This document shows, piece after piece, positions 37,009 through 64,000 of a DNA stretch of 64,000 nt. Location: contig JBAQFJ010000001.1 of NCBI GenBank assembly GCA_049287205.1, positions 842,505-906,504 of the forward strand, in the 5' to 3' direction. Under the pieces are notes generated by a model. That model was not told where the DNA came from, searched no databases, and saw only the letters and a program-made list of their open reading frames with translations. Origin of the DNA: Microgenomates group bacterium. GTDB lineage: Bacteria > Patescibacteriota > Microgenomatia > UBA10105 > UBA927. The position numbers and the translations under genes were made by a program. How positions within the stretch are numbered: position 1 is the stretch's first letter; every line of letters begins with the position of its first letter.

Positions 37009-37015
37009 TTTGACG

Positions 37016-37716: not shown

Positions 37717-37727
37717 GCGGACGAAGG

Positions 37728-37809: not shown

Positions 37810-37847
37810 AGTGGTTTTTCTTACATCTCTCTTTCACGATCTACAAG

Positions 37848-46175: not shown

Positions 46176-47156
46176 TTAAAATAAATGTTGCTGTATACAA
46201 TGTGTTCCACGAGCCGGAGCATTGACTATAACTGATTGTACACCAAACACATTTTTCAGTGCGCTATGTACAATTTCCTCATTTTTCTCTTCACACAGAA
46301 TGTGCACATTTGGACCGGCATCCATTGTGTAATATGCGGGCGTTCCATTTTTCCGTAACTCATAAACCGCATCCATCACACGAAGTGTTGCGTCGTTCCA
46401 GTAAAACAGTGGCGGTTTCTGCGTCATCATGACACAGTGCATAGAAATTGCATCTTCCTCAATGAGTGCTCCAAACGCGTGTATATTTTTCGTTGTGAGT
46501 GCCTCTTGCATCGCAATAATTTTCTCAGGAATTTGCTGTACACGAGTGCGCCAATTTGGACTTGTCTTTATGGCATCCATCCCTTCGGTACTTGATATTT
46601 TTTTCGTCTCTTTTGAAACAACACAAACCATATCGCACATATTCCACCATGTAGAAGGGAACAAGGATTCAGCATATGAATCAGCAGATTTTTTTCCTGC
46701 ATGCCACCAAACAAATCCATCAGGGATACTTCTTGCCGCAGAACCTGAACCGATTCGTGCGAGTATTGTCAATTCTTTTTCAGAAAGAGCTAATCCAATG
46801 GCACGAGAAGCAGCGAATGAAAGTGCTGCAAATCCAGATGCGGATGAAGCAATCCCCGTCCCTTTTGGAAATGAATTTTTTGTCACAACATGAGCGTATA
46901 TTTTTTTTCGCGCGAGTCGTCGAAGCCGGTCAAGATGATTTTTAATCCGTTTACTTTCACTTTCAGAAATTGATTCGCCAACAAACGAAATATCGTCGCG
47001 GGTAAACGCCGAGGAAAATTCCACCGTTGTCATTGTCACTGCTCCGCTTAAATTCATAGAAATTGAATCGTTCAGCGGCAGACGAAATTTACCCGATCGT
47101 TTTCCCCAATATTTGATGAATGCGATATTTGCAGGAGCTACAGCAGTTATTTTCAT
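46176..47156 (-). CDS. mvaD: diphosphomevalonate decarboxylase
   Basis: GHMP-fold, MKITAVAPANIAFIKYWGKR N-terminus typical of MVD. Confidence 0.85.
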   Translation of the reverse strand: MKITAVAPANIAFIKYWGKRSGKFRLPLNDSISMNLSGAVTMTTVEFSSAFTRDDISFVGESISESESKRIKNHLDRLRRLARKKIYAHVVTKNSFPKGTGIASSASGFAALSFAASRAIGLALSEKELTILARIGSGSAARSIPDGFVWWHAGKKSADSYAESLFPSTWWNMCDMVCVVSKETKKISSTEGMDAIKTSPNWRTRVQQIPEKIIAMQEALTTKNIHAFGALIEEDAISMHCVMMTQKPPLFYWNDATLRVMDAVYELRKNGTPAYYTMDAGPNVHILCEEKNEEIVHSALKNVFGVQSVIVNAPARGTHCIQQHLF

Positions 47157-48577: not shown

Positions 48578-48578
48578 A

Positions 48579-49514
48579 TTATTTTTTTTCGAGTTTTACC
48601 CCGTCTCCCCCCAACAATACCGGTTGTGTGGCATATCCGAACTTTTTCCCGATTTCTTCCACTACACTCTGTTCTTTATGATAGCAAAGCAGAAATCCTA
48701 CGCCATCTCTTTTCCCTCCGCCACCTAAAATTTTTGTAGCACCTCCATTTTTTTCAACCGCTCGTATAAAAGGAATAACTTTTTTTCCGACTACACCCAT
48801 TCGTTCAAGCGTCTCCTCACCCTTACTCATTGCGTTTAGTAATTGTTCTTCGTTTTGATCCTTAAGAGCTATTGTGATATTTTTTGCTTGTTCTTCGTTC
48901 TGAAAAAATACGTTTCTCATTTTTCTTCTATTTTTTTCAAACCGTTTTCTTACCAGCGCCACCATATCACCTGTTGTTTCTGTTGGCCTACCAGTATTTA
49001 TCAGAAAAAAATGGTTGACTGATGATGGTATCTTTATATCCAATTGCCACATGCTCTTCAAAAATTCCAATTCCTTCCGAAACCACAATATCCCCCCCAT
49101 TGTTACAATTGTATTATCGCCGCCGGATGGATTTCCATGTTGTTTTTTTTCCGCTTCATACGCTATCTGGTTAAACAATGTGGGATTCCAAATTTTTTTC
49201 AAAAAATATGTTACTGCGGCAACGGTTGCAACGGCTGTGGCGGCGGACGATCCCAAATGAAACCCCGCCGGAATATCTGAATCAACAGTAATTCGCATAG
49301 CGGGAATGGACGAGAGATGAAAATGTTCCTTCACTTTTTGCACTGCATACAATACATATTCAGGTGATTCAGTTGAAATAACTTCCATTTTCTCAGATGC
49401 TTCGACAGCAACCCGCATACGAAGATTTATTGCGGCAAGAAGCGCAGGTGTACCATATACAACTGCATGCTCTCCCATCAAATGGATTTTTCCCGGAACG
49501 GAAACAGTAATCAT
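48579..49514 (-). CDS. mevalonate kinase-like GHMP kinase
   Basis: SVPGKIHLMGEHAVVYG. Ser/Gly-rich ATP loop. Confidence 0.75.
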   Translation of the reverse strand: MITVSVPGKIHLMGEHAVVYGTPALLAAINLRMRVAVEASEKMEVISTESPEYVLYAVQKVKEHFHLSSIPAMRITVDSDIPAGFHLGSSAATAVATVAAVTYFLKKIWNPTLFNQIAYEAEKKQHGNPSGGDNTIVTMGGILWFRKELEFLKSMWQLDIKIPSSVNHFFLINTGRPTETTGDMVALVRKRFEKNRRKMRNVFFQNEEQAKNITIALKDQNEEQLLNAMSKGEETLERMGVVGKKVIPFIRAVEKNGGATKILGGGGKRDGVGFLLCYHKEQSVVEEIGKKFGYATQPVLLGGDGVKLEKK

Positions 49515-49810
49515 ATTGGTTTTACTTTAATGCCGTATGGAATAACCCCATCTGCTGCCGCGTCAATAGTTCTGCGAACAACAGTGAATACTTTTTGGTT
49601 TGTCCTAAGTTGGTCTTTTTCCCAATCAACAACTTGCGCTGTTATTTGCATACCACCATCCAGACGCACCACTGCAAGTGGATATGGTGCCTGTTCACTA
49701 AACCCATCAGGCGGCACCCGAATCATCGTCCACGAAACAATGCGTCCCGTTTTACCGATCAGCTTTGTAAAATGTTTTTGATTACGCCAAATTTTAACAG
49801 GACTAATCAT
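49511..49810 (-). CDS. DUF35 OB-fold/Zn-ribbon protein (archaeal thiolase-HMGS complex scaffold-like)
   Basis: About 100 aa OB-fold protein between thiolase and the kinases, as in archaeal-type mevalonate clusters. Confidence 0.65.
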   Translation of the reverse strand: MISPVKIWRNQKHFTKLIGKTGRIVSWTMIRVPPDGFSEQAPYPLAVVRLDGGMQITAQVVDWEKDQLRTNQKVFTVVRRTIDAAADGVIPYGIKVKPI

Positions 49811-49814
49811 AAAA

Positions 49815-50960
49815 TTATTTTTTTAAAATATGCACTACTGCTGTTGCACCGGACCCTCCAACATTATGAGCAAGTCCCAGCCTCGCATTTTTTACCTGCC
49901 GTTTTCCACACACTCCCCTGAGTTGATTTGTAATTTCCACAATTTGTTTTACACCTGTTGCACCAATCGGATGCCCACATCCTTTCAGGCCCCCTGAGGA
50001 ATTAATAACAATATGCTCAGCAGTTCCAAGTGTGTATGCTCCTTTTTCCATGCGCATCCCCACATCACCTTTTTTTTCAAATCCCATATCTTCAATTGCT
50101 AAAATTTCCGCAATGGTAAAACAATCATGCACCTCTGCAAGATGTATATCTTTTTGTCCGACACCCGCTTGAGTAAACGCTTGGAAAGCTGCCTGTTTTG
50201 TAGCCTGAAGTTCCGTTAAATTTTTTCGTCCGGCAAGTCCCAATGTGTCTGTTGCGACGGCGGAAGCAATAATATATACGCCGGATTTTTTACTTTGGTG
50301 TTTTGTAAGAATAATTGCTGCGGCACCGTCTGTAACAGGAGAACAATCAAGAAGCTTTAAGGGATCAGCAACGCAGGAACTTTTCATTACTTGCTCTACC
50401 GTAATTGGATGCGTAAATTGTGCAAGAGCGTTTAAACTTGCATGAAAATGATTTTTAACTGCTACACTTGCGAGTTGTTGTTCTGTGGTTCCATATTTTT
50501 CCATATGACTTCTGGCAAGAATTGCATACAGCCCGGGAAATGTTGCGCCTGCCAACCGCTCTTCATTAGATCCTGCTCCCATAAGCGCGGAGCTGACAAG
50601 CTCTGGTTTATGATCTGTCATCTTCTCTACTCCTAATACACACACCGTGTCATATTGACCCGACAAAATACTCATGATACCCGCGTGCACTGCAAGACCA
50701 CCGGACGCACATGCTCCTTCCACTGTATATGCAGGAATGCCAGATAAACCTAGCTCTTCTGCAAGAAGTGCACCTAAGTGCCCCTGCATACCAAGCATTC
50801 CCGATAACATGTTTGCAACAAATAATCCTTGAATTGATTTTTTCTCTATTCCACTGTCTTTTATCGCGGCTGCAACTGCAACACTTGCCAACCATCGTGG
50901 TGATGCCGCCCACAGCTCTCCAAATTTTGTCATTCCAATTCCTGCAACAGTTATGTTCAT
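49815..50960 (-). CDS. acetyl-CoA acetyltransferase (archaeal-type thiolase)
   Basis: Thiolase fold, active-site Cys region GACASGG ... CGHPIGATG. Confidence 0.85.
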   Translation of the reverse strand: MNITVAGIGMTKFGELWAASPRWLASVAVAAAIKDSGIEKKSIQGLFVANMLSGMLGMQGHLGALLAEELGLSGIPAYTVEGACASGGLAVHAGIMSILSGQYDTVCVLGVEKMTDHKPELVSSALMGAGSNEERLAGATFPGLYAILARSHMEKYGTTEQQLASVAVKNHFHASLNALAQFTHPITVEQVMKSSCVADPLKLLDCSPVTDGAAAIILTKHQSKKSGVYIIASAVATDTLGLAGRKNLTELQATKQAAFQAFTQAGVGQKDIHLAEVHDCFTIAEILAIEDMGFEKKGDVGMRMEKGAYTLGTAEHIVINSSGGLKGCGHPIGATGVKQIVEITNQLRGVCGKRQVKNARLGLAHNVGGSGATAVVHILKK

Positions 50961-52000
50961 ACTTTGTGTGTTTGTTTTAAATACCCAAGATAATCAACGT
51001 AGGTTTTATTTGCTATTTGTTGACTCACTAACCCCCGTAGGTTTTTTCGTTTTTTTTGAATCGTTACTAATGCATCTGTTGTCTTCCAAACAAAGGCGTC
51101 GCTTCCCGCCCCTGATCCATAGGAAACCATGCAGATTTTTTTATTTGGTTTTACCACATCAAGAACCGCTGAGAGACCCATCATAGAAGAAGCAGAATAG
51201 GGATTTCCAATATGATCAACGGTAAGTGAGGCGCTAAGTTGTTCACTGGTAAACCCCAACCGTTTTGCAACCTCCCGTGGAAATTTTCCATTTGGCATAT
51301 GAAACACACAATAATCAAAATCTTTTGGCTGCAGTTTTGACTTTTGAAACAGTAGTGTCGCCGCGCCCATAACATGTGCAAAATACGCAGGTTCTCCTGT
51401 AAATCTTCCTGCATGTGATGGATATCTGATCCCGTCTCTTCGCCAAAAATCAGGTGTATCTGATGAATAAGATGTGTATGAAAGAAGTGAGGCAATTACA
51501 TTTGTACTTCCCATCAACAAGGCAGATCCCGCTGACGCTGATGTATATTCAAGTGCATCATGCGGCTTACTCTGTGCAGTATCTGCACCAATCGCCATAC
51601 CGTAGGTAATTTGTTTTGCAGACAATAACCCTGCAATCATTTGCACTCCGGCAGTGCCTGCTTTACATGCAAACTCAAGGTCTGCCGCAAGATATGACGT
51701 TCCGACTCCTAAAAGTTCACCGATAATAGTCGAGCTTGGGTTCACGGCATACGGATGACTTTCTGATCCGACAAATAACGCCTCTATTGCTGATGGTTTA
51801 CCTTTAAAATACGACAGACTTTGAAGTGCGGCCTCAAGCGCAATCGTTACCGCGTCTTCATCAACACCCGGAACTGTTTTTTCGGTTACTCCCAAGGCTC
51901 CAATAATTTCCATGGGGTTTTTCTTCCACGCAGTGGCAATATCCTCTGTGTGCACCCGATATTTGGGAATATATGTTCCATATGACACAATGCCCATCAT
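50957..52000 (-). CDS. hydroxymethylglutaryl-CoA synthase (archaeal-type)
   Basis: MGIVSYGTYIPKYRV N-terminus. HMGS/KAS-III-like fold. Confidence 0.85.
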   Translation of the reverse strand: MMGIVSYGTYIPKYRVHTEDIATAWKKNPMEIIGALGVTEKTVPGVDEDAVTIALEAALQSLSYFKGKPSAIEALFVGSESHPYAVNPSSTIIGELLGVGTSYLAADLEFACKAGTAGVQMIAGLLSAKQITYGMAIGADTAQSKPHDALEYTSASAGSALLMGSTNVIASLLSYTSYSSDTPDFWRRDGIRYPSHAGRFTGEPAYFAHVMGAATLLFQKSKLQPKDFDYCVFHMPNGKFPREVAKRLGFTSEQLSASLTVDHIGNPYSASSMMGLSAVLDVVKPNKKICMVSYGSGAGSDAFVWKTTDALVTIQKKRKNLRGLVSQQIANKTYVDYLGYLKQTHKV

Positions 52001-53148
52001 AGTTGTTTCCCCCGTGCTAATTTTTGATGTGCCCGAGCAAGTGACCCTTCTGAAAGACTTGCAAGAAGCGAAATCTCGCCTGCAAGTACGGAAGCGCCAA
52101 GAATTTCCACAAATTTATTTTTATTTTTTTCTCCGTAGCACCCAAGAATTTGCAACGCCTCTTTTTGCGCACCAAGCCCTGTTCCTCCACCCACAGTTCC
52201 CACCATAAGATCAGGCATATACACACTCATATACAACTCTTTTTTGCGTACTTCTGCCGTCGTGACTCCAATGCTACATTCTCCAACGTGTGCAATATCC
52301 TGACCTGTTGCCAAAAAAACTGCCGCAAGCACATTTGCAAATTGCGCATTATTTCCCATTGATCCGCTCATAACACTTCCCAACATGCATTTAGAAATCC
52401 AAACATCATAGAATTTTTGCGCTGTTGTTTTCAACGTTTCCTGTAATACTTCTTCAGTCAACACAACTTCTGCCCACACTTTTGCTCCTCGTCCTTCTAT
52501 AAAATTCATCCATGATGGTTTTTTGTCCGTACAATAATTTCCGGAAAGTGCAACACATGAAATATGTGTCTGTTCTTGAATATACCGAGCGATTGCTTCT
52601 GTTGCGATAGTTACCATGTTGAGTCCCATTGCGTCTTTCGTATCATATTGAAACCGAACATACCGATATTGGCCAACGCCTCGGGAAAATATCTTAGTAA
52701 GTGTTATGTGATTGGAGGTAAACGCTGCAATTTTTTGCATTGCAGCCAAATGTGTATCCAAAAAGATACTTAACCTATCATTTTCAGCAAGACTTCCCAC
52801 GTAAAATACCGGTCCGCGCGTTGCGCCGACACTATACGAATCAACAATTGCACCACCACTTTGTGCAATGGCTTTACATCCCCGATTCACTGATGCTACG
52901 AGCGCGCCCTCTGTGGTTGCAAGCGGAATATATGCGGAGTGTTTTTTTGAGGATTTAATCGTTTGATACACAATGGGACCCGCAATACCAAGCGGCACTT
53001 GTGTTACTCCAATCATATTTTCGCAATGTCTCGTTGATGCAACAAATTCATCTATTGCACCCTCACTTATAGCGGACAATGGAATCTGTAATTCATGTTC
53101 CAGTTTTCTTCGCCTAACTGCAACTGCATCGTTTTTATCAAGCGTCAT
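51997..53148 (-). CDS. hydroxymethylglutaryl-CoA reductase catalytic domain (class I-like)
   Basis: DAMGLNMV and GTVGGGT motifs. Confidence 0.85.
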   Translation of the reverse strand: MTLDKNDAVAVRRRKLEHELQIPLSAISEGAIDEFVASTRHCENMIGVTQVPLGIAGPIVYQTIKSSKKHSAYIPLATTEGALVASVNRGCKAIAQSGGAIVDSYSVGATRGPVFYVGSLAENDRLSIFLDTHLAAMQKIAAFTSNHITLTKIFSRGVGQYRYVRFQYDTKDAMGLNMVTIATEAIARYIQEQTHISCVALSGNYCTDKKPSWMNFIEGRGAKVWAEVVLTEEVLQETLKTTAQKFYDVWISKCMLGSVMSGSMGNNAQFANVLAAVFLATGQDIAHVGECSIGVTTAEVRKKELYMSVYMPDLMVGTVGGGTGLGAQKEALQILGCYGEKNKNKFVEILGASVLAGEISLLASLSEGSLARAHQKLARGKQL

Positions 53149-53151
53149 ATA

Positions 53152-53769
53152 TTAAATAAATGGAATTTTAAATATTCCTAAGTGGTACATGCCAATGCTA
53201 TAAAATAGCATACTTCCTCCGACAACACCAAATACAGCGATAATACGCCATAAATCTAATTTCATCCCAAACCGTATGGTCAAATACGTCAACATCGCTT
53301 TCCAAAAAAATAATACTGAGGAAAAAATTAAAAATATTGCGCTGAATACCATACCTAATGGCCTACCGGTTCTTGGTGGAGGAAACAACACATACAAAAT
53401 TGATGTACCCAAAAACCATAAAAGCGTTGGAAGTAATGTGTACCCCCATGAAAGAGCAAGAACACGAAGACTTCCTTTTCCACCCATACATTTTCCAACA
53501 ATGAAAAGAAGCGATACTATCACGGCATACGTCACCACCACAGAAAGCGCGATGAGGATAAATTGTTTGGTTAAGACAAAGGGTCTGAATGCAGCAGTTT
53601 TTACCAATGACGCAATCGCAAAATAACAGGAAAGCAACACCCCAAGCGGAACAAGTTCCCATAAAGAACCGTGGTGAACAATACGTCTATATGCTTCGTA
53701 TGGTTTTGTCGCCAGTCCTACACTTGACCTGAAAAACGCAACACATCCGATAAGGAGTGAACCCGTCAT
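53152..53769 (-). CDS. polytopic membrane protein (Yip1-like, hypothetical), last gene of mevalonate operon
   Basis: 5 TM helices. 3-nt gap to the HMGR gene. Confidence 0.4.
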   Translation of the reverse strand: MTGSLLIGCVAFFRSSVGLATKPYEAYRRIVHHGSLWELVPLGVLLSCYFAIASLVKTAAFRPFVLTKQFILIALSVVVTYAVIVSLLFIVGKCMGGKGSLRVLALSWGYTLLPTLLWFLGTSILYVLFPPPRTGRPLGMVFSAIFLIFSSVLFFWKAMLTYLTIRFGMKLDLWRIIAVFGVVGGSMLFYSIGMYHLGIFKIPFI

Positions 53770-53794
53770 ACTGAATTAGTCGTACAAATTCGCT

Positions 53795-53859
53795 AAAACC
53801 CTCGCCCGCCTGCATCGCTTATGCGAAGCATTGCAGGCAGGCCCCGCCTGCTCTCGAGG
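53795..53859 (-). terminator. GC-rich intrinsic terminator hairpin after sigma/anti-sigma pair
   Basis: Minus strand CCTCGAGAGCAGGCGGGGCCTGCCTGCAATGCTTCGCATAAGCGATGCAGGCGGGCGAGGG followed by TTTT. Confidence 0.45.
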
Positions 53860-53876
53860 CAAGTTGTAGATGGAGA

Positions 53877-54107
53877 CTAAAAACCCTTTTGTAATAAGGT
53901 CACGATCGTTGTTATAGAAGGACCAAACCACAATACAAGCACAATGACCAACAATGCACTAATGATTACGAGTGCGGGAATAGGCATGATTTTCAGCTGA
54001 TGGGTGATGCGTTTATACAATCCGGTAAACGGCCCCACTGTCTGTGGAGACAATTCCATTGTTTCTTTCCATCTGGATACCAGCTTATGATAATTAGCTT
54101 TGGACAT
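53877..54107 (-). CDS. putative anti-sigma factor (single-TM small protein)
   Basis: 76 aa with one TM helix. Overlaps the 3' end of the ECF sigma gene. Confidence 0.4.
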   Translation of the reverse strand: MSKANYHKLVSRWKETMELSPQTVGPFTGLYKRITHQLKIMPIPALVIISALLVIVLVLWFGPSITTIVTLLQKGF

Positions 54108-54633
54108 GGTGTTTTACAAACGCTTTTTTTGCCCGAAACAGCATAGATTCAGCGCCTTTGAGAGTAATTGCTAATTTACGCGCAATTTCAGCAACCGGCA
54201 TGTTTAAAATATATCTGGCGTATAAGACTGTTTTATATTGCGGAATGAGTTTATTCAACGTTTTATGCAACTCTTCCTTCAATACTCGCTCATCAAGCGC
54301 AGCTTCAGGATTTAACAGTGGAGACACTAATTCTTCAATCTCAGGCATTTGGGAAAATACAAGTTGTTTTATCTTCTTTTTCCGATAAAAATCAATAATC
54401 TTATGATTGCAGATGGATTGCAAAAATGTACGAAGGTTGCAATTCCCCCGAAAATCACGGAGCGCATCTAAAAATGCATACAGCGTTTCCTGCATGATGT
54501 CCTCAACATCATGCGGATTCTGCACTTTCATCTGAATAAACCGTTTTAACGGCGGGGTGTACGTATGGTAAAACTCATACAGCGCCCGTTCATCCCGAGC
54601 CAGAATTCGCTGCAATAACTCAGATTCTTCCAT
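54094..54633 (-). CDS. ECF-type RNA polymerase sigma factor
   Basis: Sigma-70 region 2 (DVEDIMQETLYAFLDAL ... IIDFYRKKK) and region 4 HTH (LNMPVAEIARKLAITLKGAESMLFRAKK). Internal ATG 54633 preferred. Confidence 0.75.
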   Translation of the reverse strand: MEESELLQRILARDERALYEFYHTYTPPLKRFIQMKVQNPHDVEDIMQETLYAFLDALRDFRGNCNLRTFLQSICNHKIIDFYRKKKIKQLVFSQMPEIEELVSPLLNPEAALDERVLKEELHKTLNKLIPQYKTVLYARYILNMPVAEIARKLAITLKGAESMLFRAKKAFVKHHVQS

Positions 54634-54722
54634 ATATATGCTGTAACTATACCATGGAACGAAAAACCAAGGCAATAAAGCCAAGCCTTGTGTTTACCTG
54701 CAATATTTCGTACACTTTTCCT

Positions 54723-55043
54723 ATGGAACGCATTTTCGCGCAAGATTCGGTCGACATAAAAGACATTTTTCAACCTGCAGGTTCATTTGCGACACTTGGA
54801 GATCTTGTTTCTGTCCTACTAAAGAATGCGTTCACTATTGCAGGGGTTATTTTTTTCGTTTTGTTGATTTTTGGCGGATTTACATTTATAGTATCAGCAG
54901 GTGGTGGCGATGCAAAAAAGGCAGAACAGAGCAAAAAGACCATTACAGCAGCTGCCACAGGGCTTGTTCTCATTTTTGCATCCTATTGGATCATTCAACT
55001 CATTGAAATTATTACAGGTGTACCAATTTTAAATTTGAACTAA
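54723..55043 (+). CDS. VirB2/TrbC-like pilin-like helical-hairpin protein (array member 1)
   Basis: LLIFGGFTFIVSAGGGDAKKAEQSKKTITAAATGLVLIF core. ATG 54723 preferred over track start 54654. Confidence 0.45.
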   Translation: MERIFAQDSVDIKDIFQPAGSFATLGDLVSVLLKNAFTIAGVIFFVLLIFGGFTFIVSAGGGDAKKAEQSKKTITAAATGLVLIFASYWIIQLIEIITGVPILNLN

Positions 55044-55044
55044 T

Positions 55045-55419
55045 ATGCATTTTTTAGAAAAAGTTTTTGCTGAAGGTGCAACCGATATCATTGGGACGGT
55101 CACCAATCCTATTACTCCAAAATATGGAGGTCTTGAAACAGGACTTATCCCTTTTTTCAGCAATGTGCTTCGGTTAGTATTTGCGGTTGCAGGTGTGTAT
55201 GCCTTCATTAACCTTATCCTTGCAGGATACGGCTACATGAGCGCAGGTGGAGACGCAAAAGCAGTTTCCAAAGCATGGGACAAAATCTGGCAAACACTTA
55301 TTGGACTTGCCATCATCGCAGGATCATTTGTCATTGCCGCATTGTTTGGTTACCTCATCTTTGGTGATCCGATGTTTATGTTAAAACCAACAATTTATGG
55401 CCCAGGTGTAACACAATAA
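55045..55419 (+). CDS. VirB2/TrbC-like pilin-like helical-hairpin protein (array member 2)
   Basis: LILAGYGYMSAGGDAKAVSKAWDKIWQTLIGLAII core. Confidence 0.45.
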   Translation: MHFLEKVFAEGATDIIGTVTNPITPKYGGLETGLIPFFSNVLRLVFAVAGVYAFINLILAGYGYMSAGGDAKAVSKAWDKIWQTLIGLAIIAGSFVIAALFGYLIFGDPMFMLKPTIYGPGVTQ

Positions 55420-55420
55420 T

Positions 55421-55795
55421 ATGAAAACGCTTGCAGACGTACAATTACAACAAATAGGTGAAGGCGGCGGCGGTTTAGGAACTTTCGGCGGACAAACTTT
55501 TACAGCTGACAGTGCCCTCTCATCATTTACCCATACGATATCCGCAATCATCGGTCTTTTAACAGCTGTAGCTGCAGTGTGGTTTCTTGTACAAATTACC
55601 TTGGGTGGCATCAGCTGGATAACTGCTGCAGGAGAAAAATCAAAACTTACAGAGGCACGTGACAAAATCACTCATGCGTTTATTGGACTTATCATTGTCG
55701 TTGCAGGCTGGGGAATTCTCGCGCTTGCAGGACAATTCTTTGGATGGGACACCATATTATTACCGTCGTCTGTCGGAGAATTAATTAAATTCTAA
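55421..55795 (+). CDS. VirB2/TrbC-like pilin-like helical-hairpin protein (array member 3)
   Basis: ITLGGISWITAAGEKSKLTEARDKITHAFIGLIIV core. Confidence 0.45.
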   Translation: MKTLADVQLQQIGEGGGGLGTFGGQTFTADSALSSFTHTISAIIGLLTAVAAVWFLVQITLGGISWITAAGEKSKLTEARDKITHAFIGLIIVVAGWGILALAGQFFGWDTILLPSSVGELIKF

Positions 55796-55800
55796 TTTCT

Positions 55801-56142
55801 ATGAACCGCATACTTGCACAAATCACCAATCCGGTTCTTCCAGCCAGTCTTGGCACAGGAACTGTGGAACAAGGCGGAACAGTTATCGGCAAACTCATCA
55901 GCAACATCGTTGGACTGTTGTTTATGTTTTCTTTTCTTTTAACACTACTCTATTTAATCATGGGTGGTCTTCAGTGGATCACAGCAGGCGGAGACAAAAC
56001 ACACTTGGAATCAGCGCGTAATAAAATTACAAATGCAATCGTCGGACTTATTATAGTTGCCGCCGCGTATGCGATATTCACCCTTGTCGGAGAATTTTTG
56101 GGACTTGATGTTGCAAACCTGCAAATTCCTTCTTTTAAGTAA
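55801..56142 (+). CDS. VirB2/TrbC-like pilin-like helical-hairpin protein (array member 4)
   Basis: LIMGGLQWITAGGDKTHLESARNKITNAIVGLIIV core. Confidence 0.45.
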   Translation: MNRILAQITNPVLPASLGTGTVEQGGTVIGKLISNIVGLLFMFSFLLTLLYLIMGGLQWITAGGDKTHLESARNKITNAIVGLIIVAAAYAIFTLVGEFLGLDVANLQIPSFK

Positions 56143-56289
56143 AAAGGCGGATTGATTGTAGATTTGCCACACGTACCGTATAATTAACATAGTATAAATT
56201 ATCTTCCTCAGCCCATGAAGGTTGTTGGAAGATTCAAGAAATTGATTTACTCGTACTAACTCGTAAGCAATTTCTAGAGGAGGTGACGT

Positions 56290-56622
56290 ATGTTAGAAAA
56301 ACTATTCGCAGCAGATTTGACAATTGCACAACCAAGTAATGTTAAAATTACTGACGTTGGACAACTTATCAGTGCAGCAGTTGGCACAATCCTTATTCTT
56401 GCGGCACTTCTCGCATTTATATTTTTGATCTTAGGCGGTATTCAGTGGATTACTTCCGGTGGAGACAAAGCAGCTATGGAAGCGGCACGGAATAAGATTA
56501 CACATGCAATCGTCGGACTTATTATTGTCGGAGCAGCATGGGCAATCATGATGTTGGTACAGAATTTCTTAGGCGTCAGCATCATTGGTTCACAAGGAGT
56601 TACACTCCCGAAACCATTCTAA
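56290..56622 (+). CDS. VirB2/TrbC-like pilin-like helical-hairpin protein (array member 5)
   Basis: LILGGIQWITSGGDKAAMEAARNKITHAIVGLIIV core. GGAGGTG RBS. Confidence 0.45.
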   Translation: MLEKLFAADLTIAQPSNVKITDVGQLISAAVGTILILAALLAFIFLILGGIQWITSGGDKAAMEAARNKITHAIVGLIIVGAAWAIMMLVQNFLGVSIIGSQGVTLPKPF

Positions 56623-56647
56623 TTTTTTGAAAATATATTGTATATTC

Positions 56648-56672
56648 AAAAGCCCCCTTTGGGGGGTTTTTG
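56648..56672 (+). terminator. intrinsic terminator
   Basis: AAAAGCCCCCtttGGGGGGTTTTT directly after the array-member-5 stop. Confidence 0.6.
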
Positions 56673-56699
56673 ATTTCTGGTATACTTATCAGTACACAT

Positions 56700-57050
56700 A
56701 TGCGTCTACTTGCAGCAACAAATTGGCAAAACCTTGAAAAAGCGAGTCCAACGGACAGCACTGCTGATGTTGCGACCATCGGATCACTCGTTACTGTATT
56801 TTCTAATGTCATTCAAGCGGTCACTGCGCTCGCGGGTATTGTGCTATTTATTATGCTTGTGACAGGCGGCTTCACGTTTCTTTTCTCAGGCGGCGATCAG
56901 AAAAAGTTGGAAAAGGCAAAAGGAACACTGACAAGCGCAATCATCGGACTTGTTGTTTTGATATGCAGCTATCTCATCCTTATGCTTATCCAAAAAGCGA
57001 CAGGAACAACGGCAGATCTTACTAAATTTCAATTGAATATCGGACAGTAG
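56700..57050 (+). CDS. VirB2/TrbC-like pilin-like helical-hairpin protein (array member 6)
   Basis: LVTGGFTFLFSGGDQKKLEKAKGTLTSAIIGLVVL core. ATG 56700 preferred because the track start overlaps the terminator. Confidence 0.45.
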   Translation: MRLLAATNWQNLEKASPTDSTADVATIGSLVTVFSNVIQAVTALAGIVLFIMLVTGGFTFLFSGGDQKKLEKAKGTLTSAIIGLVVLICSYLILMLIQKATGTTADLTKFQLNIGQ

Positions 57051-57088
57051 CTGTTGACGCATAACAAAAAGTAACGGATAATACCAGT

Positions 57089-58504
57089 ATGAAACGGGTG
57101 TTTCTCTCATTATTTTTAAGCTTCGTTACCTCTTTTTGTTTCCTCTCGCCTATCCACGCTTCCTGGGTAGATGAAGGATATGACGAAGCCATGAAGGCTG
57201 CGGAAAACGGCGATGTAAATTCAGCAGCATATATCTCAAACGCTGACAATAACACAAAACTAAATCTTGTAAGACAAGTTTTTGGCGCAGTGGAAGGATT
57301 AACCGTCATGAAAGGCGACTTGAATGAACCCTACGCCAAGAAAATGAATAACCAAAGCGCAATATCAGGATTGTCTACATATATCGGCTACATGTACACC
57401 AATCCTCCAGCTTCCACATATGCATTCGTCCAAGATATGGGGCAAACACTCGGATTTATTCCAAAACAAGCCTATGCACAAGGTATAGGTTTTTCAGGTC
57501 TTTCTCCCCTGCTTCCAATTTGGAAAATGTTTCGCAATATTAGCTATGCCATTCTTGCTCTTGTTATGGTTGCTATTGGATTTATGGTCATGTTCCGAAA
57601 AAAAATTGACCCAAAAACTGTTGTGACTGTACAAAATGCACTTCCAAAAGTTGTGGTTACACTCATTCTTATCACTTTTTCTTATGCAATTGTGGGTCTT
57701 ATGATTGATTTAATGTATATCGTTCTCTATGCAGCGCTACAATTAATCGTCACATCAGCTCCAAGTGGCATGTTTGATGCAGATCATGTTTCAGTATTTA
57801 CGAGCAGTAGCTTTGGCGCAGTGTGGAAAGGAATGTTTGGAGGATTTGAAACCTTCCCAATAATGATTAACAGTATCATGCCGGGAGAAGCATCTTGGAT
57901 TACTAAATTAACTCTTGCTACTATTTTCAGCGGCGGCGTGGCTGGGGTACTCAGTATTTTAGTTGCCCTTATTATGGCTATTGCATTTCTTTTTGGTGTT
58001 GTTCGATTATTTTTTATGCTGCTATCCGCATATATTCAAATTATTGTTGCAGTACTTATAGGACCCATTCAAATTTTGTTAGACGCAGTTCCTGGTGGAC
58101 AAGGATTTTCAGGATGGATAAAAAACCTTCTATCCAATCTCGTCGTATTTCCTATAACATCTGTTATGCTAACTCTTGCATATTTTTTAATTAAATCAGC
58201 AGATAAAACCTGGACGCCACCACTACTTGGCTCAGGTTCAAGTGGTATCAGTTCACTCATAGGATTAGGATTTCTTTTTATCATTCCAAACACAGTCAAA
58301 GGGCTCCAAGAAGCACTCAAGGCAAAACCAATGGTTAATGCTGGACTTGGGGCAATTGCAGGACCAATGGGTTCAGGCGTAGGACAGGGCATGCAACTTG
58401 TTTACCAAGGGGCTATGATCAAAGAAGGACTATTTGCAAGAAAACCAAACACAAATACATTGCAAAGTACCATTGATTCAGCAAAAGCGGCTGAAAAAGG
58501 TTAA
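57089..58504 (+). CDS. VirB6/TrbL-like polytopic membrane protein (putative)
   Basis: Cleavable signal peptide and about 100-aa periplasmic domain. Five or six TM segments. C-terminal tail. Topology typical of T4SS VirB6/TrbL. No sequence signature verified. Confidence 0.4.
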   Translation: MKRVFLSLFLSFVTSFCFLSPIHASWVDEGYDEAMKAAENGDVNSAAYISNADNNTKLNLVRQVFGAVEGLTVMKGDLNEPYAKKMNNQSAISGLSTYIGYMYTNPPASTYAFVQDMGQTLGFIPKQAYAQGIGFSGLSPLLPIWKMFRNISYAILALVMVAIGFMVMFRKKIDPKTVVTVQNALPKVVVTLILITFSYAIVGLMIDLMYIVLYAALQLIVTSAPSGMFDADHVSVFTSSSFGAVWKGMFGGFETFPIMINSIMPGEASWITKLTLATIFSGGVAGVLSILVALIMAIAFLFGVVRLFFMLLSAYIQIIVAVLIGPIQILLDAVPGGQGFSGWIKNLLSNLVVFPITSVMLTLAYFLIKSADKTWTPPLLGSGSSGISSLIGLGFLFIIPNTVKGLQEALKAKPMVNAGLGAIAGPMGSGVGQGMQLVYQGAMIKEGLFARKPNTNTLQSTIDSAKAAEKG

Positions 58505-58508
58505 CACT

Positions 58509-61500
58509 TCATTTCTTCTTCTTCTCATCATTTATGGACTCCATCGTTGCTAATGTAACGGTTGCTACTGGTATCACCCACCAGTATTTCCGAGGCAATC
58601 CATATAATACTCTCCATGGCATTGTCGAGTGCGTTTCCCTCCGTAACTTATTCAATAAATGAGGAGAATTGTCAAATAAACCAGCTCGTTGAATTTTATT
58701 CAGAAATGCTGCCATTTTAAATTCATCCCACGCATTGCCCTCTGGCCCCTGGAACCGAACAGAAAGTGAAACGAGCTCAGAAAGACTCAATGGGACGTCT
58801 TTAATTTTTCTTCCAAAAAGTTTATTTTTGTCCGCCCATTTTTCAAGAGCATTTACCCCACCCCTCTTCTTTTTCCCAATCTCGCCAAGTAAATGAAACG
58901 GCTGTAAATGATCGATTTCTACTTCACCAATATTTTTTAACAACGATGTCATACCCGGAATCCAACCAATAGGATTTAAAAATCTTGTGCCTCGATTTTC
59001 ATTAAATAAGCAAATTACTTTTAATAAACTATAGGTGGCTTGTTCCGCTCCATCACGGGTTGAGTAATTGTTAATGGCTGATTTATATTCTTTCAATTTT
59101 TTAACCAGATCATCAAATTTTTCCGGGCCCAAAAGATCAGCATCAGTAATAATTTGAAGCATTGTGTCGCGAGCCTGTGCCATATTCATCATATCTCTCC
59201 CACGACGATCAAGCGCAGCAGTACCAAGTTTAGCAAAATTCGAATCTGACCAATCAATCCCTGACAAAGCCAACGATATTGGGAATTTACTTTTAGACCA
59301 CTGAGGAATTACCTTTTTTGCCTCCGCTTGAACATCTAGGAGTACGGCTCGGAACAATTCCTTTTTCCCTGCGGTCACTGGACCTAATTTATCCATAAAT
59401 GGAGCAATCACTTCATTAAAATCATCTACCTTACTCAAATTTATTGTTCTCTCAAGGTACTTCTTATCATGCCACAATTTCGTTTGTCCTTTTGCTAATA
59501 ATTCTTGAAACAGTCGTTGATCTTTCACGCTTAGACCGTGACGTGCAAACACTTCATTCATTCGTTTTCCAGCCATCACTTCAATATAAGTAAGCGGCAT
59601 ACGATCAACCATTTTTTCTAAAATCCGCTGTCGAGCTGTCGCATTAGGTGCAATAAGTAGCTGTAACCCTAATGCAGCATTTTCCCAAGCCTCAGGCGAA
59701 AGCTTTGATTCAATCATTGCATGCTGAATTTGTGTAAGTAATCCTTCATCCAGTCGCCAAGCCGTCGCATCAAAATCTGCTCCTGTTCTCATAAAACCAG
59801 ACCCAAGCATTTCACTAAAAGAAATACCCATATCCTGTTCCGCAACTTCCATAAATCGGCGCAGACGCAGCGCTTCTGGATTTTCCTCTCCTTCCCAAGC
59901 TGAGAACCAATCTTTCGTGGTTGTTAACTTGGTCCCCTCTGGATATTGCGATGTTCGCAACATCGAAAGGACACGTTCTCCCATCGCGCCTCCAGTTTTA
60001 AATCTATATGCAAACAGTTCTGGATTGATAATCCGTTGAATATCCTCCATAAAAGGAGATACCATAACATATTTTCCGGATTGGTTATCTGTATATTTAT
60101 AGGATTTTAATTCCACATTTCTTGGACGAGTCACCATGAATGCTCCTCTGTCTACCATATATCCGGATCCAATTGTATGCAGACGAGCTGCCCATATTGC
60201 GTCTCTTAATTTCCAATGAATTTTTGCCAAATCATCTTCACTCATATTTTTCTGAACAGATAGATATTCTTCCATCATGTCAAACACTCGTGCCTCAAGT
60301 GGAGAAAACTCTTGATATCGCTCAACAGTAGACATTTTCGTCGGATCTTCTAATCGATCTCTTTCCTTAAGCCGGGTTTGTTGTTCAGCTTTTTTTGCGA
60401 TAAAATCTGGAAGTCTTTCCAATTCCTGCAGCTGGTTAGGTGTCAACTTATCCAAAGGAATTGATTTCAACTCTTCGAGATGGTGCGTAGCTTCAATCCA
60501 AGAAATACGCGCTTCACTGTACACAAGCACATCGTCGTCGTATAATCCAACCCCAAAGCCCACTGTATCAATGCCATCTTTTACCGTAGAGTTCATTTTA
60601 GTTTTGAATGCGTCTAATTCTGCTTTTTGCCCGAGTGCAAGATTTATTATTTGATTCCCTTCAAGTTTTCCTGCAATCGTTGCCTCCATATATCGACAAT
60701 ATAACTCATCAAAATTTAACACTTCATTCTTTTTAATAAGCAATCGTTCTTGAAGCCACTCCGGAATTGTTTGAAGATCCACATTACTCAAAATAAATTG
60801 TAATCTTTCGTTATACACCCCTTGTTTATCTCCTAACAACATTGGCGTCGCTTCATTCATAAATCCAATTGCTAATGAGGAATATTCATTATAATTGGCG
60901 TATGAATCCAAATCTGCACCCAATAATTTTCGGTAGGCCAATAACTTATCTTTAATATCACCCGGTATATAAGCCAACGCTTTTAATGTATATTCTTGTT
61001 TTCCACGATCTGACCATGCCATTTCAAATGGAACTTTTATTACTTTTGCTTTTTCTCCAAATATCCATTCAAGCGCTGTTTTAAATCGATCATATTTTGT
61101 CTGATCAGGTAGTTCTGGATGTTTTTGCTCTCTTCCGACTCCATAAATGTCCGCAATAAAGTCAGAAAAAAACTCTTTTATTTTTTCTAAATCTCCAGAC
61201 AGTAATAATTCTTGTTCTCTTGGATTAAATCCATATAAATTTAACGGTTCGCTGTCTGGATGCTGTGTAATTTTTTGCTGTTGCTCTTTAGATAATTGCG
61301 ACCAAACAACATCTCTTCTCTCTTGTGACAAATTTTTGTCGTTTTGCAACTCTTTCACTCTTCTGTTTGTCCTGTCGATATATTTTTTCAACTCCTCTTT
61401 CTTAACCTTAAAAAATTTCCTTTTCCCCTCATCATCAATCTTTACTCCATCTCCTTTTGTCATTTCTTTTGCAATATCCTCAAGATATCTAATTTCTTGA

Positions 61501-62246
61501 TCAAGCGTTATGTCTCCACGAAAATCAATTCTTTCCTGATATTCTTGTAAAAATCCATGTAAGTCTGAACTCATTCCACCACCATCTAACATTTCATCGT
61601 ATAGACGGAATCCCCGAAGCGAATATGTTAAATCTTCATCATTCAAGGGGAATGCGACGTTTTTATTTGTTTCTTTCAAATCCCGTATGTGCAAAATTGC
61701 CTTATTTACTAAGTTGATTTCTTCGGCTCTTGCCTTTACGTTGTCGCTCATTGACGCAGAAAGCTCTGACGTCAAATGAAAAAGAACATTGGGATCTTTA
61801 GCAAGATCTTCTGGTAACAAAGAAACCTTCTCAACAAATTTCGCGGCAGCTGCGCTATTTTCTATTTCCGCGGGTGTAAATGTCGAACCTAACCAATCAG
61901 GTTTATCCTTTGCCAAATTCCAAGCCGTTTCACACCGTTTATGCATCGTTTCAAATGAAGATAAATTTTTATAACGCAACGTTTCATTCAATTCTTTCAT
62001 CGCCATTGAAACATTGCCCTGATTAACATTAACTATTTCTGTGAGTTGCTTCGCTTTTAGCTGTTCTTGTTGAATGTATGTTTCATCACTTTCAATTGGA
62101 GTATGCTTTCTTTCAGCTAATTTCTGAATTTTCTCTTTCAGATATTCAGGCTTAACCTTCTCAATTTTTTTTGGTTCAGCGTCTGCGATTGCGGCGACCC
62201 ATTTTGACACTATCTCCGGAAGTGGTTGTTGACTACGTTCTGACAT
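58509..62246 (-). CDS. very large uncharacterised protein (1245 aa)
   Basis: Single uninterrupted ORF. No signal peptide. C-terminal hydrophobic segment WWVIPVATVTLATM. No motif recognised. Confidence 0.5.
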   Translation of the reverse strand: MSERSQQPLPEIVSKWVAAIADAEPKKIEKVKPEYLKEKIQKLAERKHTPIESDETYIQQEQLKAKQLTEIVNVNQGNVSMAMKELNETLRYKNLSSFETMHKRCETAWNLAKDKPDWLGSTFTPAEIENSAAAAKFVEKVSLLPEDLAKDPNVLFHLTSELSASMSDNVKARAEEINLVNKAILHIRDLKETNKNVAFPLNDEDLTYSLRGFRLYDEMLDGGGMSSDLHGFLQEYQERIDFRGDITLDQEIRYLEDIAKEMTKGDGVKIDDEGKRKFFKVKKEELKKYIDRTNRRVKELQNDKNLSQERRDVVWSQLSKEQQQKITQHPDSEPLNLYGFNPREQELLLSGDLEKIKEFFSDFIADIYGVGREQKHPELPDQTKYDRFKTALEWIFGEKAKVIKVPFEMAWSDRGKQEYTLKALAYIPGDIKDKLLAYRKLLGADLDSYANYNEYSSLAIGFMNEATPMLLGDKQGVYNERLQFILSNVDLQTIPEWLQERLLIKKNEVLNFDELYCRYMEATIAGKLEGNQIINLALGQKAELDAFKTKMNSTVKDGIDTVGFGVGLYDDDVLVYSEARISWIEATHHLEELKSIPLDKLTPNQLQELERLPDFIAKKAEQQTRLKERDRLEDPTKMSTVERYQEFSPLEARVFDMMEEYLSVQKNMSEDDLAKIHWKLRDAIWAARLHTIGSGYMVDRGAFMVTRPRNVELKSYKYTDNQSGKYVMVSPFMEDIQRIINPELFAYRFKTGGAMGERVLSMLRTSQYPEGTKLTTTKDWFSAWEGEENPEALRLRRFMEVAEQDMGISFSEMLGSGFMRTGADFDATAWRLDEGLLTQIQHAMIESKLSPEAWENAALGLQLLIAPNATARQRILEKMVDRMPLTYIEVMAGKRMNEVFARHGLSVKDQRLFQELLAKGQTKLWHDKKYLERTINLSKVDDFNEVIAPFMDKLGPVTAGKKELFRAVLLDVQAEAKKVIPQWSKSKFPISLALSGIDWSDSNFAKLGTAALDRRGRDMMNMAQARDTMLQIITDADLLGPEKFDDLVKKLKEYKSAINNYSTRDGAEQATYSLLKVICLFNENRGTRFLNPIGWIPGMTSLLKNIGEVEIDHLQPFHLLGEIGKKKRGGVNALEKWADKNKLFGRKIKDVPLSLSELVSLSVRFQGPEGNAWDEFKMAAFLNKIQRAGLFDNSPHLLNKLRRETHSTMPWRVLYGLPRKYWWVIPVATVTLATMESINDEKKKK

Positions 62247-63609: not shown

Positions 63610-64000
63610 TTACGACTTCTCAATTGTTTTAGTATAGCGCTCACGGCTAGACCTGATCACCTTTTCCCTGCTTTGGTTGTGGCTTCTTGGAAGCGGTAGA
63701 GTTGTGGCCGAAAATGGGCTTGACGTGTGATTATCAATCGAAAGCTTTAACACGATCTGATAATTGCCAAGTTGCACCAATTCTTCTTCTTTATATTTGA
63801 GCCCGAACTCACGGGCAAGCGGTCTGGCATCCGTGGCTCCCACACAAAACGAAATGATAGATCCTGCATTTCCAAAAATAGCATTTTGCACATCCTCATC
63901 GATTTGCCCGATATATTGGTTGGCAAGTGTCAGATTCAACCGATATTTTCTTGCTTCAGAAAGAATTTTGATAAATGAACTCGTTGCAAAATTTTGGAAT
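63610..64000 (-). CDS. FtsK/HerA/VirD4-superfamily ATPase, C-terminal fragment (CDS continues beyond window end)
   Basis: Frame stays open to position 64000. ARKYRLNLTLANQYIGQ ... AIFGNAGSIISFCVGATDARPLAREFG resembles the C-terminal RecA-fold segment of FtsK and T4SS coupling/VirB4 ATPases. Confidence 0.45.
   Translation of the reverse strand, partial: FQNFATSSFIKILSEARKYRLNLTLANQYIGQIDEDVQNAIFGNAGSIISFCVGATDARPLAREFGLKYKEEELVQLGNYQIVLKLSIDNHTSSPFSATTLPLPRSHNQSREKVIRSSRERYTKTIEKS

Follow-up and report, generated by a model that had tools for sequence, protein, structure and literature searches.

What is encoded by an array of small two-helix membrane proteins in the chromosome of a Microgenomates group bacterium? 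The question is raised by a 64,000-nucleotide (nt) stretch of contig JBAQFJ010000001.1 (assembly GCA_049287205.1, forward-strand positions 842,505 to 906,504; hereafter, the window), in which six such genes, p1 to p6, stand in tandem ahead of a gene for a 471-amino-acid (aa) polytopic membrane protein, with two further paralogues, p7 and p8, at a distance. An earlier note on this DNA had proposed VirB2/TrbC-like pilins and a VirB6-like protein in a locus resembling a type IV secretion system (T4SS), and this core proposal is upheld by matches of the small proteins to Pfam family PF18895 (T4SS_pilin) and by VirB4 and VirB3-like genes close by. With a probability of roughly 85 to 90%, the locus is the pilin and channel module of a chromosomal T4SS of the Patescibacteria type, related to the monoderm systems of mating-pair-formation class FATA (MPF-FATA). 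All features described in the note (the eight small open reading frames [ORFs], the 471-aa protein, a sigma factor, a 76-aa protein, a 1245-aa protein, and an ATPase fragment) were found in place.

The array lies on the plus strand and comprises p1 (54723-55043, 106 aa), p2 (55045-55419, 124 aa), p3 (55421-55795, 124 aa), p4 (55801-56142, 113 aa), p5 (56290-56622, 110 aa), and p6 (56700-57050, 116 aa), the last of which probably starts at ATG 56700, its ORF opening with TTG at 56670. The distal paralogues p7 (44581-45144, 187 aa) and p8 (45146-45484, 112 aa) are on the same strand. The spacing of 1 to 4 nt originally given for the array holds for the first two junctions (1 nt each), whereas p3 and p4 are 5 nt apart, p4 and p5 147 nt, and p5 and p6 47 to 77 nt. 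A promoter and a 5′ untranslated region (UTR) lie inside the p4-p5 gap, and an intrinsic terminator and a promoter inside the p5-p6 gap.

A hidden Markov model (HMM) built from the eight paralogues recovered exactly those eight among the 618 ORFs of the window, at E values of 3e-38 to 4e-32 with the next at 0.25, and their paralogy is therefore real. They align over a hydrophobic helix, a loop rich in glycine and in lysine and arginine, and a second hydrophobic helix; identity to p1 is 23 to 40%, and the N-terminal, presumably exposed, regions differ most. The core motif quoted earlier stands as a loose consensus, since three glycines, one alanine, and one isoleucine are the only invariant residues; in the alignment, the loop between the hydrophobic helices reads GGD-x-KK-x-E-x-AK-x-K. 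Seven of the eight proteins score above the PF18895 gathering threshold of 26.6 bits, in the range of 29 to 46 bits (p1, 29.8; p3, 29.1; p4, 29.8; p5, 38.3; p6, 45.7; p7, 32.0; p8, 38.3). The exception is p2, at 21.5 bits, which we assign to the same family from its orthologues and its position. Matches to the VirB2/TrbC profile PF04956 (gathering threshold, 27.9 bits) are weak and below threshold, with 15.8 bits for p2 (E value of 0.016) and 15.1 bits for p4 (E value of 0.027), which suggests a remote relationship only. An AlphaFold2 model of p5 forms a hairpin of two helices (residues 20-55 and 60-94) with a predicted local distance difference test score (pLDDT) above 90 in the helices; the alignment and this model both display the two-helix hairpin with a basic inter-helix loop that marks VirB2/TrbC proteins. 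Membership in the VirB2 superfamily thus rests on profiles, architecture, and context.

Context also bears on whether the hairpin proteins might be unrelated small membrane proteins, such as holins or accessory subunits of transporters, that lie beside T4SS genes by coincidence. Two-helix hairpins are a generic fold, and for this reason a Foldseek search with the p5 model was nondiscriminating (best E value of 1.9, with an archaeal conjugation pilus at rank 12). The PF18895 matches, however, are specific and above threshold, and the genomic arrangement is stable. In a metagenome scan seeded on the 76-aa protein encoded next to the sigma factor (80 loci; each count refers to loci whose flanking sequence was long enough), at least one divergent pilin gene was present in 42 of 45 loci, exactly six in 22 of 24, and a VirB6-like gene directly after the pilin array in 17 of 18. 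VirB3 and VirB4 genes lie within 10 kb in five of five genomes, and the same arrangement recurs on a Firmicute plasmid described below. Profile matches and synteny effectively refute the holin or unrelated-family reading, which we regard as scarcely credible.

The note had further remarked that no VirB4 gene lies in the window and that the system might be noncanonical. This impression was dispelled by Logan contig L001 (related loci are designated by L numbers), which shares the final 1,764 nt of the window at 0 mismatches, adds 4.8 kb, and carries VirB4, PrgI/VirB3-like, and TraC/TrsD-like genes just beyond the window's end. The fragment at that end (63610-64000, minus strand), noted previously as part of an FtsK/VirD4-superfamily ATPase, consists of the C-terminal 129 codons of a gene that continues to window-equivalent position 65796; on L001 it is complete and encodes a 728-aa VirD4-like coupling ATPase with DUF8128, DUF87, TrwB_AAD_bind, and TraG-D_C domains. 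Divergent from it are genes for a 421-aa PrgI/VirB3-like protein and a 218-aa TraC-like protein, the latter corresponding to "TrsD" of a published survey (PMC12102498), and the start of VirB4, so that the VirD4-like, VirB3-like, TrsD/TraC-like, and VirB4 genes are all within 10 kb. At locus L006, whose TraC-like protein is 93% identical, VirB4 is 622 aa long with P-loop_TraG and AAA_10 domains; after it come an M23 peptidase of 726 aa, a protein of 363 aa, and, about 3 to 6 kb past VirB4, dnaN and dnaA.

A VirB4 of the AAA_10/P-loop_TraG type with adjoining TrsD-like and PrgI/VirB3-like genes occurs in L001 and L002-L006. The complete order is common to L002-L005 and runs from the mevalonate operon through a Yip1-domain gene, the 76-aa gene, the sigma gene, six pilin genes, and the VirB6-like gene to a gene for a protein of about 1200 aa, (nadE and) nadD, the VirD4-like gene, and the PrgI-like, TraC-like, and VirB4 genes. 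A scan of Genome Taxonomy Database (GTDB) genomes with the TraC-like protein yielded 77 loci, most with a VirB6-like gene ahead of PrgI, TraC-like, and VirB4 genes and often with an M23 hydrolase gene. The architecture recurs in dozens of genomes. One of these loci, L073 from Shapirobacteria, has six pilin genes, a hydrolase gene, and a VirB6-like gene upstream of VirB3/VirB4. The hydrolase, an 809-aa glycoside hydrolase of family 5 (GH5, cellulase family; L073:2375-4804), is an insertion that separates the VirB6-like gene from the six pilins, and it could be an accessory that degrades cell wall or host glycans.

Homology of the VirB4, VirD4-like, and VirB6-like proteins to conjugation machinery raises the possibility that the locus belongs to an integrated conjugative element for DNA transfer between cells. 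The VirB4 of L006 is closest to "VirB4-like, CD1110 family" proteins on Firmicutes and Actinobacteria plasmids (28 to 37% identity over about 90% of the length), and the matching records are mostly typed as conjugative. Against this stands the setting of the locus among housekeeping genes (the mevalonate operon, nadD/nadE, and dnaN/dnaA), in a synteny that holds at 39 to 52% identity of the VirB6-like protein, as well as a uniform GC content of 0.40 to 0.42. Among the annotated genes of these loci, neither a relaxase nor an integrase was seen, no scan having been made of the genome beyond the window, and relaxases are reported to be absent from most Patescibacteria T4SS clusters (PMC12102498). 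The conjugative-element reading was rejected on housekeeping context and synteny, and we consider it very unlikely.

The 471-aa protein (57089-58504, plus strand; identical to WAV51_04700) would supply the channel component of the T4SS module that we favor. It belongs to a family of more than 880 proteins of the candidate phyla radiation (CPR) and consists of an N-terminal signal peptide, an extracellular domain, and a helical membrane bundle; in L002-L005, its counterparts are 42 to 52% identical in the family alignment and 39 to 52% by BLAST. A structure model built on 33 homologues (pLDDT of 71; predicted template modeling [TM] score [pTM] of 0.55) was compared by Foldseek with 350,542 Protein Data Bank (PDB) chains, and the top six matches were all TrwI/VirB6 of R388, at E values of 3e-3 to 7e-2, a probability of 1.0, and target-normalized TM scores of 0.40 to 0.52. 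In this model, the predicted fold is polytopic and helical, as in VirB6, and the gene is encoded with VirB2, VirB3, and VirB4 genes. Structure comparison and synteny thus support the VirB6-like reading put forward in the note, whereas every sequence-level link to TrbL/VirB6 failed. The protein matched neither Pfam PF04610 (TrbL) nor NCBIfam at E values of ≤0.1, its family profile found nothing among PDB sequences at E values of ≤10, and hhalign against a TrbL/VirB6-like protein of Pontibacillus gave a probability of 1.8%. Compared with TrwI/VirB6 (R388) and DotA (Legionella Dot/Icm) in PDB entries 7o3v, 8rt9, and 9ngy, the protein is only 10 to 15% identical, has an additional N-terminal extracellular domain of about 110 aa, and lacks a TrbL profile match. 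VirB6 had appeared "scarce" in Microgenomatia in a published survey, whose authors proposed extreme divergence (PMC12102498); judged by its predicted fold, the 471-aa family is a good candidate for the VirB6 missing from such surveys.

Why should there be six pilin genes rather than one? The note had suggested antigenic or functional variation of a surface filament or conduit. An antigenic-variation array would consist of recently duplicated and fast-diversifying surface subunits used alternately to vary antigenicity or host range. Paralogue identities of no more than 40%, with N-terminal regions most different, would suit such a repertoire, as would the analogy with the VirB2 arrays of Bartonella and Anaplasma (PMC12102498). 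Comparison among genomes points the other way. For the pilins of the window and L002-L005, the best cross-genome match was the gene in the same array position in 30 of 30 cases, and orthologues are 43 to 95% identical, far above the level among paralogues. By position, identities to the four other genomes are 49 to 78% for p1, 50 to 81% for p2, 43 to 79% for p3, 53 to 83% for p4, 70 to 95% for p5, and 49 to 58% for p6. Orthogroup-specific HMMs returned the order 1-2-3-4-5-6 in 31 of 31 complete arrays, and all incomplete arrays but one ("446") are consistent with that order.

The ratio of nonsynonymous to synonymous substitution rates (dN/dS) had been proposed for the paralogues. That calculation was dropped because it is meaningless at 23 to 40% identity, and orthologues were used instead. 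Between the window and L003, dN/dS is 0.03 to 0.13 for p1 to p5, values that are approximate because dS, at about 0.9 or more, is close to saturation or past it; for the p6 pair, no estimate was obtained. Neither repeats nor signs of recombination were noticed, no search having been aimed at them. One-to-one positional orthologues, fixed order, and low dN/dS argue against a variable repertoire, which we rejected and consider most improbable, and for distinct subunits that are required together. By these comparisons, the six pilins are ancient orthogroups that keep a fixed order and evolve under purifying selection. Within the locus, conservation is highest for p5 (dN of 0.039 between the window and L003; 70 to 95% identity, compared with 42 to 52% for the VirB6-like gene in the same four genomes), and 1,200 homologues of p5 were found. 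Orthologues of the distal pair are present in L005 (62% identity for p7 and 51% for p8) in the same neighborhood, in which p7 is divergent to a gene for a 584-aa secreted SpoIID-domain protein (42767-44521) with UppS on the other side.

Expression signals likewise set p5 apart. Conservation of promoters and terminators was read across about 45 loci. The p1 promoter (54688-54716, plus strand) consists of TTGTGT (54688-54693), a 17-nt spacer, and TACACT (54711-54716), for which the family consensus is TTGACA-17-(C/G)TACACT followed by 6 or 7 nt to the ATG; because 6 nt separate the −10 element from the ATG, the mRNA probably has no leader. Genes p2 to p4 start 1 to 5 nt after the preceding gene and have no Shine-Dalgarno sequence. 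Upstream of p5, in contrast, is a promoter with a long 5′ UTR (56156-56289, plus strand): TTGTAG (56156-56161), 17 nt, and TATAAT (56179-56184), then a UTR of about 100 nt with two hairpins and GGAGG, the only such Shine-Dalgarno sequence of the whole array. The combination of TTGACA, TATAAT, and GGAGG is kept in most of 41 loci. The UTR (56185-56289) folds at −26.4 kcal/mol (z score of −2.7) and is about 80 nt longer in the window, L003, and L084 than in most related loci; its first stem differs in sequence between the window and L003 with the pairing preserved, and no Rfam family was matched there or elsewhere in 53000-59000. An intrinsic terminator follows p5 (56646-56673, plus strand; 12-bp stem with six GC pairs and a T run) and also occurs in L003, L084, L085, and L088. 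Because it has its own promoter, the sole GGAGG, a terminator, and the highest conservation, p5 is, as far as such signals can tell, likely the best candidate for the major, abundantly made subunit.

Directly after the p5 terminator lies the extended −10 element of p6, TGGTATACT (56678-56686, plus strand); p6 and the VirB6-like gene each have a −10 element 6 to 13 nt ahead of the ATG. Short leaders recur beyond p1. The −10 hexamers stand 6 to 7 nt before the starts of p1 and the VirB6-like gene (54711-54725 and 57077-57091) and about 12 nt before the start of the sigma gene (54633-54654), and none of these three genes has a Shine-Dalgarno sequence; from such sequence signals, leaderless or near-leaderless mRNAs appear common in the host organism. 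A further conserved element, TTGCGCAACAAT, was observed between TTGACA and TATAAT upstream of p5 in L002, L004, L019, L040, L045, L052, L089, L093, and others. It does not occur in this form in the window; an operator, an overlapping second promoter, and the −35 element of a GCAAC-type extracytoplasmic function (ECF) promoter are possible identities.

The N termini of the pilins introduce a more serious competitor. Seven of the eight proteins lack the signal peptide typical of VirB2, TrbC, and TraA, and longer N termini for p2 to p4 are excluded by the limits of their upstream ORFs. The sole paralogue with a Sec-type signal peptide is p7, in which about 80 aa rich in Cys (10 Cys) lie between signal peptide and pilin core. 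The two-helix proteins could be membrane-embedded channel subunits of a monoderm T4SS, of the Mbov_0395/PrgF type known from conjugative elements of Gram-positive bacteria and Mycoplasma, that form no pilus, the six orthogroups making up a hetero-oligomeric ring or lining together with VirB6. Such an assignment would fit the lack of signal peptides in most of the window pilins and the stoichiometric-looking set of six genes in fixed order. It would also fit matches of seven of the eight paralogues to NCBIfam NF045849 (Mbov_0395 family pilin-like conjugal transfer protein), which fall below the cutoff of that family (E values of 8e-8, for p8, to 1e-2).

The Firmicute comparison bears on the same point. 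The Pontibacillus sp. ALD_SL1 megaplasmid NZ_CP062975 (L163, 351362-361354) encodes two PF18895 proteins, a 779-aa protein with a subthreshold TrbL/VirB6 match (E value of 2e-4), a VirB3-like protein, a 274-aa TrsD-like protein, VirB4, and an M23/NlpC hydrolase. It shares with the present system the PF18895 family, the gene order (pilins, VirB6-like, VirB3-like, TrsD-like, VirB4, and M23), and a VirB4 that is 36% identical, but it is plasmid borne and has two pilin-like genes as opposed to six plus two. VirB2-like proteins thus also occur outside diderms and Patescibacteria. Their presence in monoderm systems of the same gene order weakens the idea that CPR pilins were borrowed from diderm systems; by this comparison, the pilins may have been acquired jointly with monoderm-type machinery and need not be diderm co-options. 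The same gene order keeps the channel-subunit alternative alive, as the T4SSs of Gram-positive bacteria are commonly regarded as lacking pili (PMC12102498, PMC12857230). On the other side, the strong promoter, Shine-Dalgarno sequence, and terminator that p5 has to itself suit a bulk filament subunit better than an equimolar part of a ring, the family is profile-related to TrbC/VirB2, and the published view leans to pilins (PMC10633639, PMC12857230). We regard channel subunits that build no pilus as a possible but rather doubtful explanation.

A short motif, M-x(0-7)-(V/I/L)-(F/L/Y)-A-(Q/A/E/D), was observed at the N termini of pilins without a signal peptide (p1 to p5, p8, and orthologues in L002-L005 and L083-L162). 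Among distinct N termini, it was counted in 34 of 35 for p5, 29 of 40 for p2, 30 of 45 for p3, 26 of 44 for p4, 25 of 52 for p1, and 10 of 33 for p6, and in p7 it stands at the end of the full signal peptide. The motif is similar both to the A|Q site at which VirB2 is processed and to the cleavage (c) region of Sec signal peptides, and it may be a processing site, a relic, or an assembly signal.

Under the T4SS reading, the pilins would enter the membrane as hairpins of two helices whose K/R-rich loop faces the cytoplasm and whose two ends lie outside. VirB4, anchored by the VirB3-like protein, would pull them out of the membrane, and on a platform of VirB6 they would polymerize to a pilus or conduit that spans the thin CPR envelope, contacts a host cell, and serves adhesion, or export or uptake of macromolecules, rather than conjugation. 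The major subunit would be p5, with p1 to p4, p6, p7, and p8 as specialized minor subunits (initiation, tip, and adaptor) that may replace the absent VirB5, and the divergent ECF sigma/76-aa/Yip1 genes would form a dedicated envelope-signaling module tied to the T4SS. We consider this explanation as a whole, a T4SS pilin and channel module with the proposed mechanism, to be likely. For an extracellular filament with p5 as its major pilin, the odds seem about even. More elaborate is a heteromeric pilus or conduit in a monoderm envelope that would jointly include a shaft of p5; base, tip, and adaptor roles for p1 to p4 and p6 in place of VirB5; p7 and p8 as distal paralogues; a hyperdivergent VirB6; an ECF sigma/mini-anti-sigma/Yip1 sensor; the C-anchored protein of about 1200 aa as a new component; and a signal-peptide-independent route of insertion or processing marked by M-x-x-(V/I/L)-(F/L)-A-(Q/A). 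Taken together, this full assembly is speculative and, in our view, unlikely to be right in every part.

Besides the unspecific fold search with p5, the lack of signal peptides, and the sequence-level gap between the 471-aa family and VirB6, several observations weigh against this interpretation. None of these organisms has been seen to bear a filament, which makes pilus formation an inference. For VirB6, the assignment depends on gene position and on a model of medium confidence. The VirD4-like gene is set apart from the pilin/VirB6-like part by nadD, nadE, and the 1245-aa gene, and homologues of the type IV coupling protein (T4CP) in Patescibacteria may serve other roles (PMC12102498). Within the signaling module, the 76-aa protein has no recognized anti-sigma domain and no Pfam match at E values of ≤0.01, and the p1, p5, and p6 promoters, like that of the VirB6-like gene, match the consensus of the housekeeping sigma-70 rather than the ECF pattern GAAC...CGT.

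The last two points bear on the sigma/anti-sigma pair named in the note. The sigma gene (54094-54684, minus strand) probably starts at ATG 54633 rather than at TTG 54684, and its extended −10 element, TGGTATAGT (plus-strand positions 54646-54654, read on the minus strand), is conserved across loci back-to-back with the p1 −35 element. The product matches Sigma70_r2 (E value of 1e-11), Sigma70_r4_2 (E value of 6e-12), and TIGR02937 (sigma70-ECF; 84.4 bits against a cutoff of 42.9); with regions 2 and 4 matched and no match for region 3, it is an ECF (group 4) factor of the sigma-70 family. Its putative anti-sigma partner, a 76-aa single-pass membrane protein (53877-54107, minus strand), is so assigned by position only: the label finds no recognized domain to support it and relies on cotranscription, a 14-nt overlap with the sigma stop codon, and a single transmembrane helix. 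An HxxxCxxC motif does not occur in the 76-aa sequence. The protein is 76 aa long in five of five genomes, with 24 invariant residues.

The unit itself is conserved. The sigma gene adjoins the 76-aa gene in 60 of 61 loci, and the Yip1 gene, in the window a 205-aa polytopic membrane protein (53152-53769, minus strand; Pfam Yip1 E value of 3e-9), lies downstream of the 76-aa gene in 40 of 53 loci and in L002-L005 as the last gene of the unit, which is divergent to the pilin array in about 60 loci. An ECF-type promoter had been expected upstream of 54723. None was found upstream of p1 or p5 across the roughly 45 loci, where the conserved elements are sigma-70-like, and the conserved promoter at p1 is TTGACA-17-TACACT instead. 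Because the pilin promoters are sigma-70-like, colocation of the ECF factor is no evidence that it regulates the array, and direct control of the locus by the adjacent factor is a tentative idea that we hold to be somewhat improbable. In Brucella melitensis, an ECF sigma/anti-sigma pair is likewise linked to a T4SS (PMC8315932), but regulation was shown experimentally there, whereas the present case offers conserved adjacency only, sigma-70-like promoters, and a partner without a recognized anti-sigma domain.

The hint of novelty in the earlier note does not survive comparison with the literature, in which the system and its pilin arrays are already described (PMC10633639, PMC12102498, PMC12857230); the locus thus amounts to a correct recognition of a known T4SS. 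In the Saccharibacterium Southlakia epibionticum, the T4SS and a series of pilins are essential (Wang et al. 2023, PMC10633639). A catalogue of 441 VirB2 arrays of 2 to 11 genes showed enrichment in Microgenomatia, with arrays that often lie close to dnaA and lack a relaxase (Quinonero-Coronel et al. 2025, PMC12102498), and described Patescibacteria T4SSs as MPF-FATA related, near the replication origin, and equipped with VirB2-like arrays. A 2025 review highlighted six divergent VirB2-like pilins and discussed a pilus conduit in a monoderm as speculation (PMC12857230). No T4SS had been shown to be essential for its bearer before that of the Patescibacteria, which is a suspected conduit for exploiting hosts (PMC10633639, PMC12857230).

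With SEML1_0006-0019 of S. epibionticum and other Patescibacteria systems, the present locus shares a chromosomal location, tandem divergent VirB2-like pilins (six in both), an MPF-FATA-like VirB4 with TrsD-like and PrgI/VirB3-like partners, and a downstream peptidase or hydrolase; as in those systems, no relaxase was seen among the annotated genes, and, judging from L006, dnaA is probably nearby. It differs in being split, in that the 1245-aa gene, nadE, nadD, and the inverted VirD4-like gene separate the pilins and the VirB6-like gene from VirB3/TrsD/VirB4; in a VirB6 homologue too divergent for HMM detection; and in the ECF sigma/76-aa/Yip1 unit fixed beside the array. The TM7x array is described as Sec secreted, unlike the seven window pilins without a signal peptide. 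With the VirB2/TrbC/TraA pilins of diderms (PF04956; T-pilus and F-pilus), it has in common a length of about 100 to 125 aa, two hydrophobic helices, a short basic loop, and a gene that adjoins VirB6 near VirB3 and VirB4. The differences are eight paralogues in place of one, a monoderm-type envelope, no long cleaved signal peptide in seven of the eight, and, relative to diderm T4SSs, no VirB5, VirB7, VirB9, or VirB10.

New relative to these publications are the fixed pilin orthogroups, p5 as the likely major subunit, and the linkage to the sigma/76-aa/Yip1 unit. The literature searched held no mention of the 471-aa VirB6-like family, of positional pilin orthology, of p5-specific expression signals, or of an association of an ECF sigma/76-aa/Yip1 unit with Patescibacteria T4SSs. 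For uncultured Microgenomatia, these features offer handles: a candidate VirB6 that HMM surveys missed; a candidate major pilin for antibodies, cryo-electron tomography, and structure determination; pilin paralogues that are fixed, distinct subunits and not a variable repertoire; and a conserved sigma-factor module that could be a regulatory input.

Convergent to the array is the gene for the 1245-aa protein (58509-62246, minus strand; identical to WAV51_04705), followed by nadE and nadD, also convergent to the array, between it and the ATPase fragment. The protein has no signal peptide, ends in a C-terminal hydrophobic helix followed by a charged tail, and has no Pfam match, nor do the six relatives examined. 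It had been called an orphan, but an HMMER scan of 1.84 billion proteins with its C-terminal 911 aa yielded 89 representative relatives. Syntenic copies in L002-L005 are 27 to 37% identical, each with the C-terminal hydrophobic helix, so that from sequence and position we describe it as a fast-evolving, clade-restricted family conserved in position.

CPR-specific domains of unknown function, a mevalonate operon, and the even GC content identify the window as part of a CPR/Patescibacteria chromosome, and as the related loci are mostly labeled Gottesmanbacteria, we take the host to be a Gottesmanbacteria-like member of Microgenomatia. The mevalonate operon (46176-53148) looks complete, with HMG-CoA reductase and synthase, thiolase, GHMP kinases with a NUDIX fusion, and diphosphomevalonate decarboxylase; it directly adjoins the sigma/Yip1 unit, a synteny kept in L002-L004. 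At the opposite edge of the window (2-529, minus strand) is the C-terminal piece of a second VirD4/T4CP-like paralogue, which scored 42 against a T4CP family profile built here and, searched as a fragment, had no Pfam match. Six tRNA genes, for four different tRNA-Ser and two tRNA-Arg, cluster at 34973-37935 (minus strand). Finally, many third-party annotation (TPA) metagenome-assembled genomes with a clearly CPR locus (L006, L008, L009, and others) carry the title "uncultured Gammaproteobacteria bacterium," and one goes by "Clostridia bacterium"; such titles are probably taxonomic mislabels in public records.

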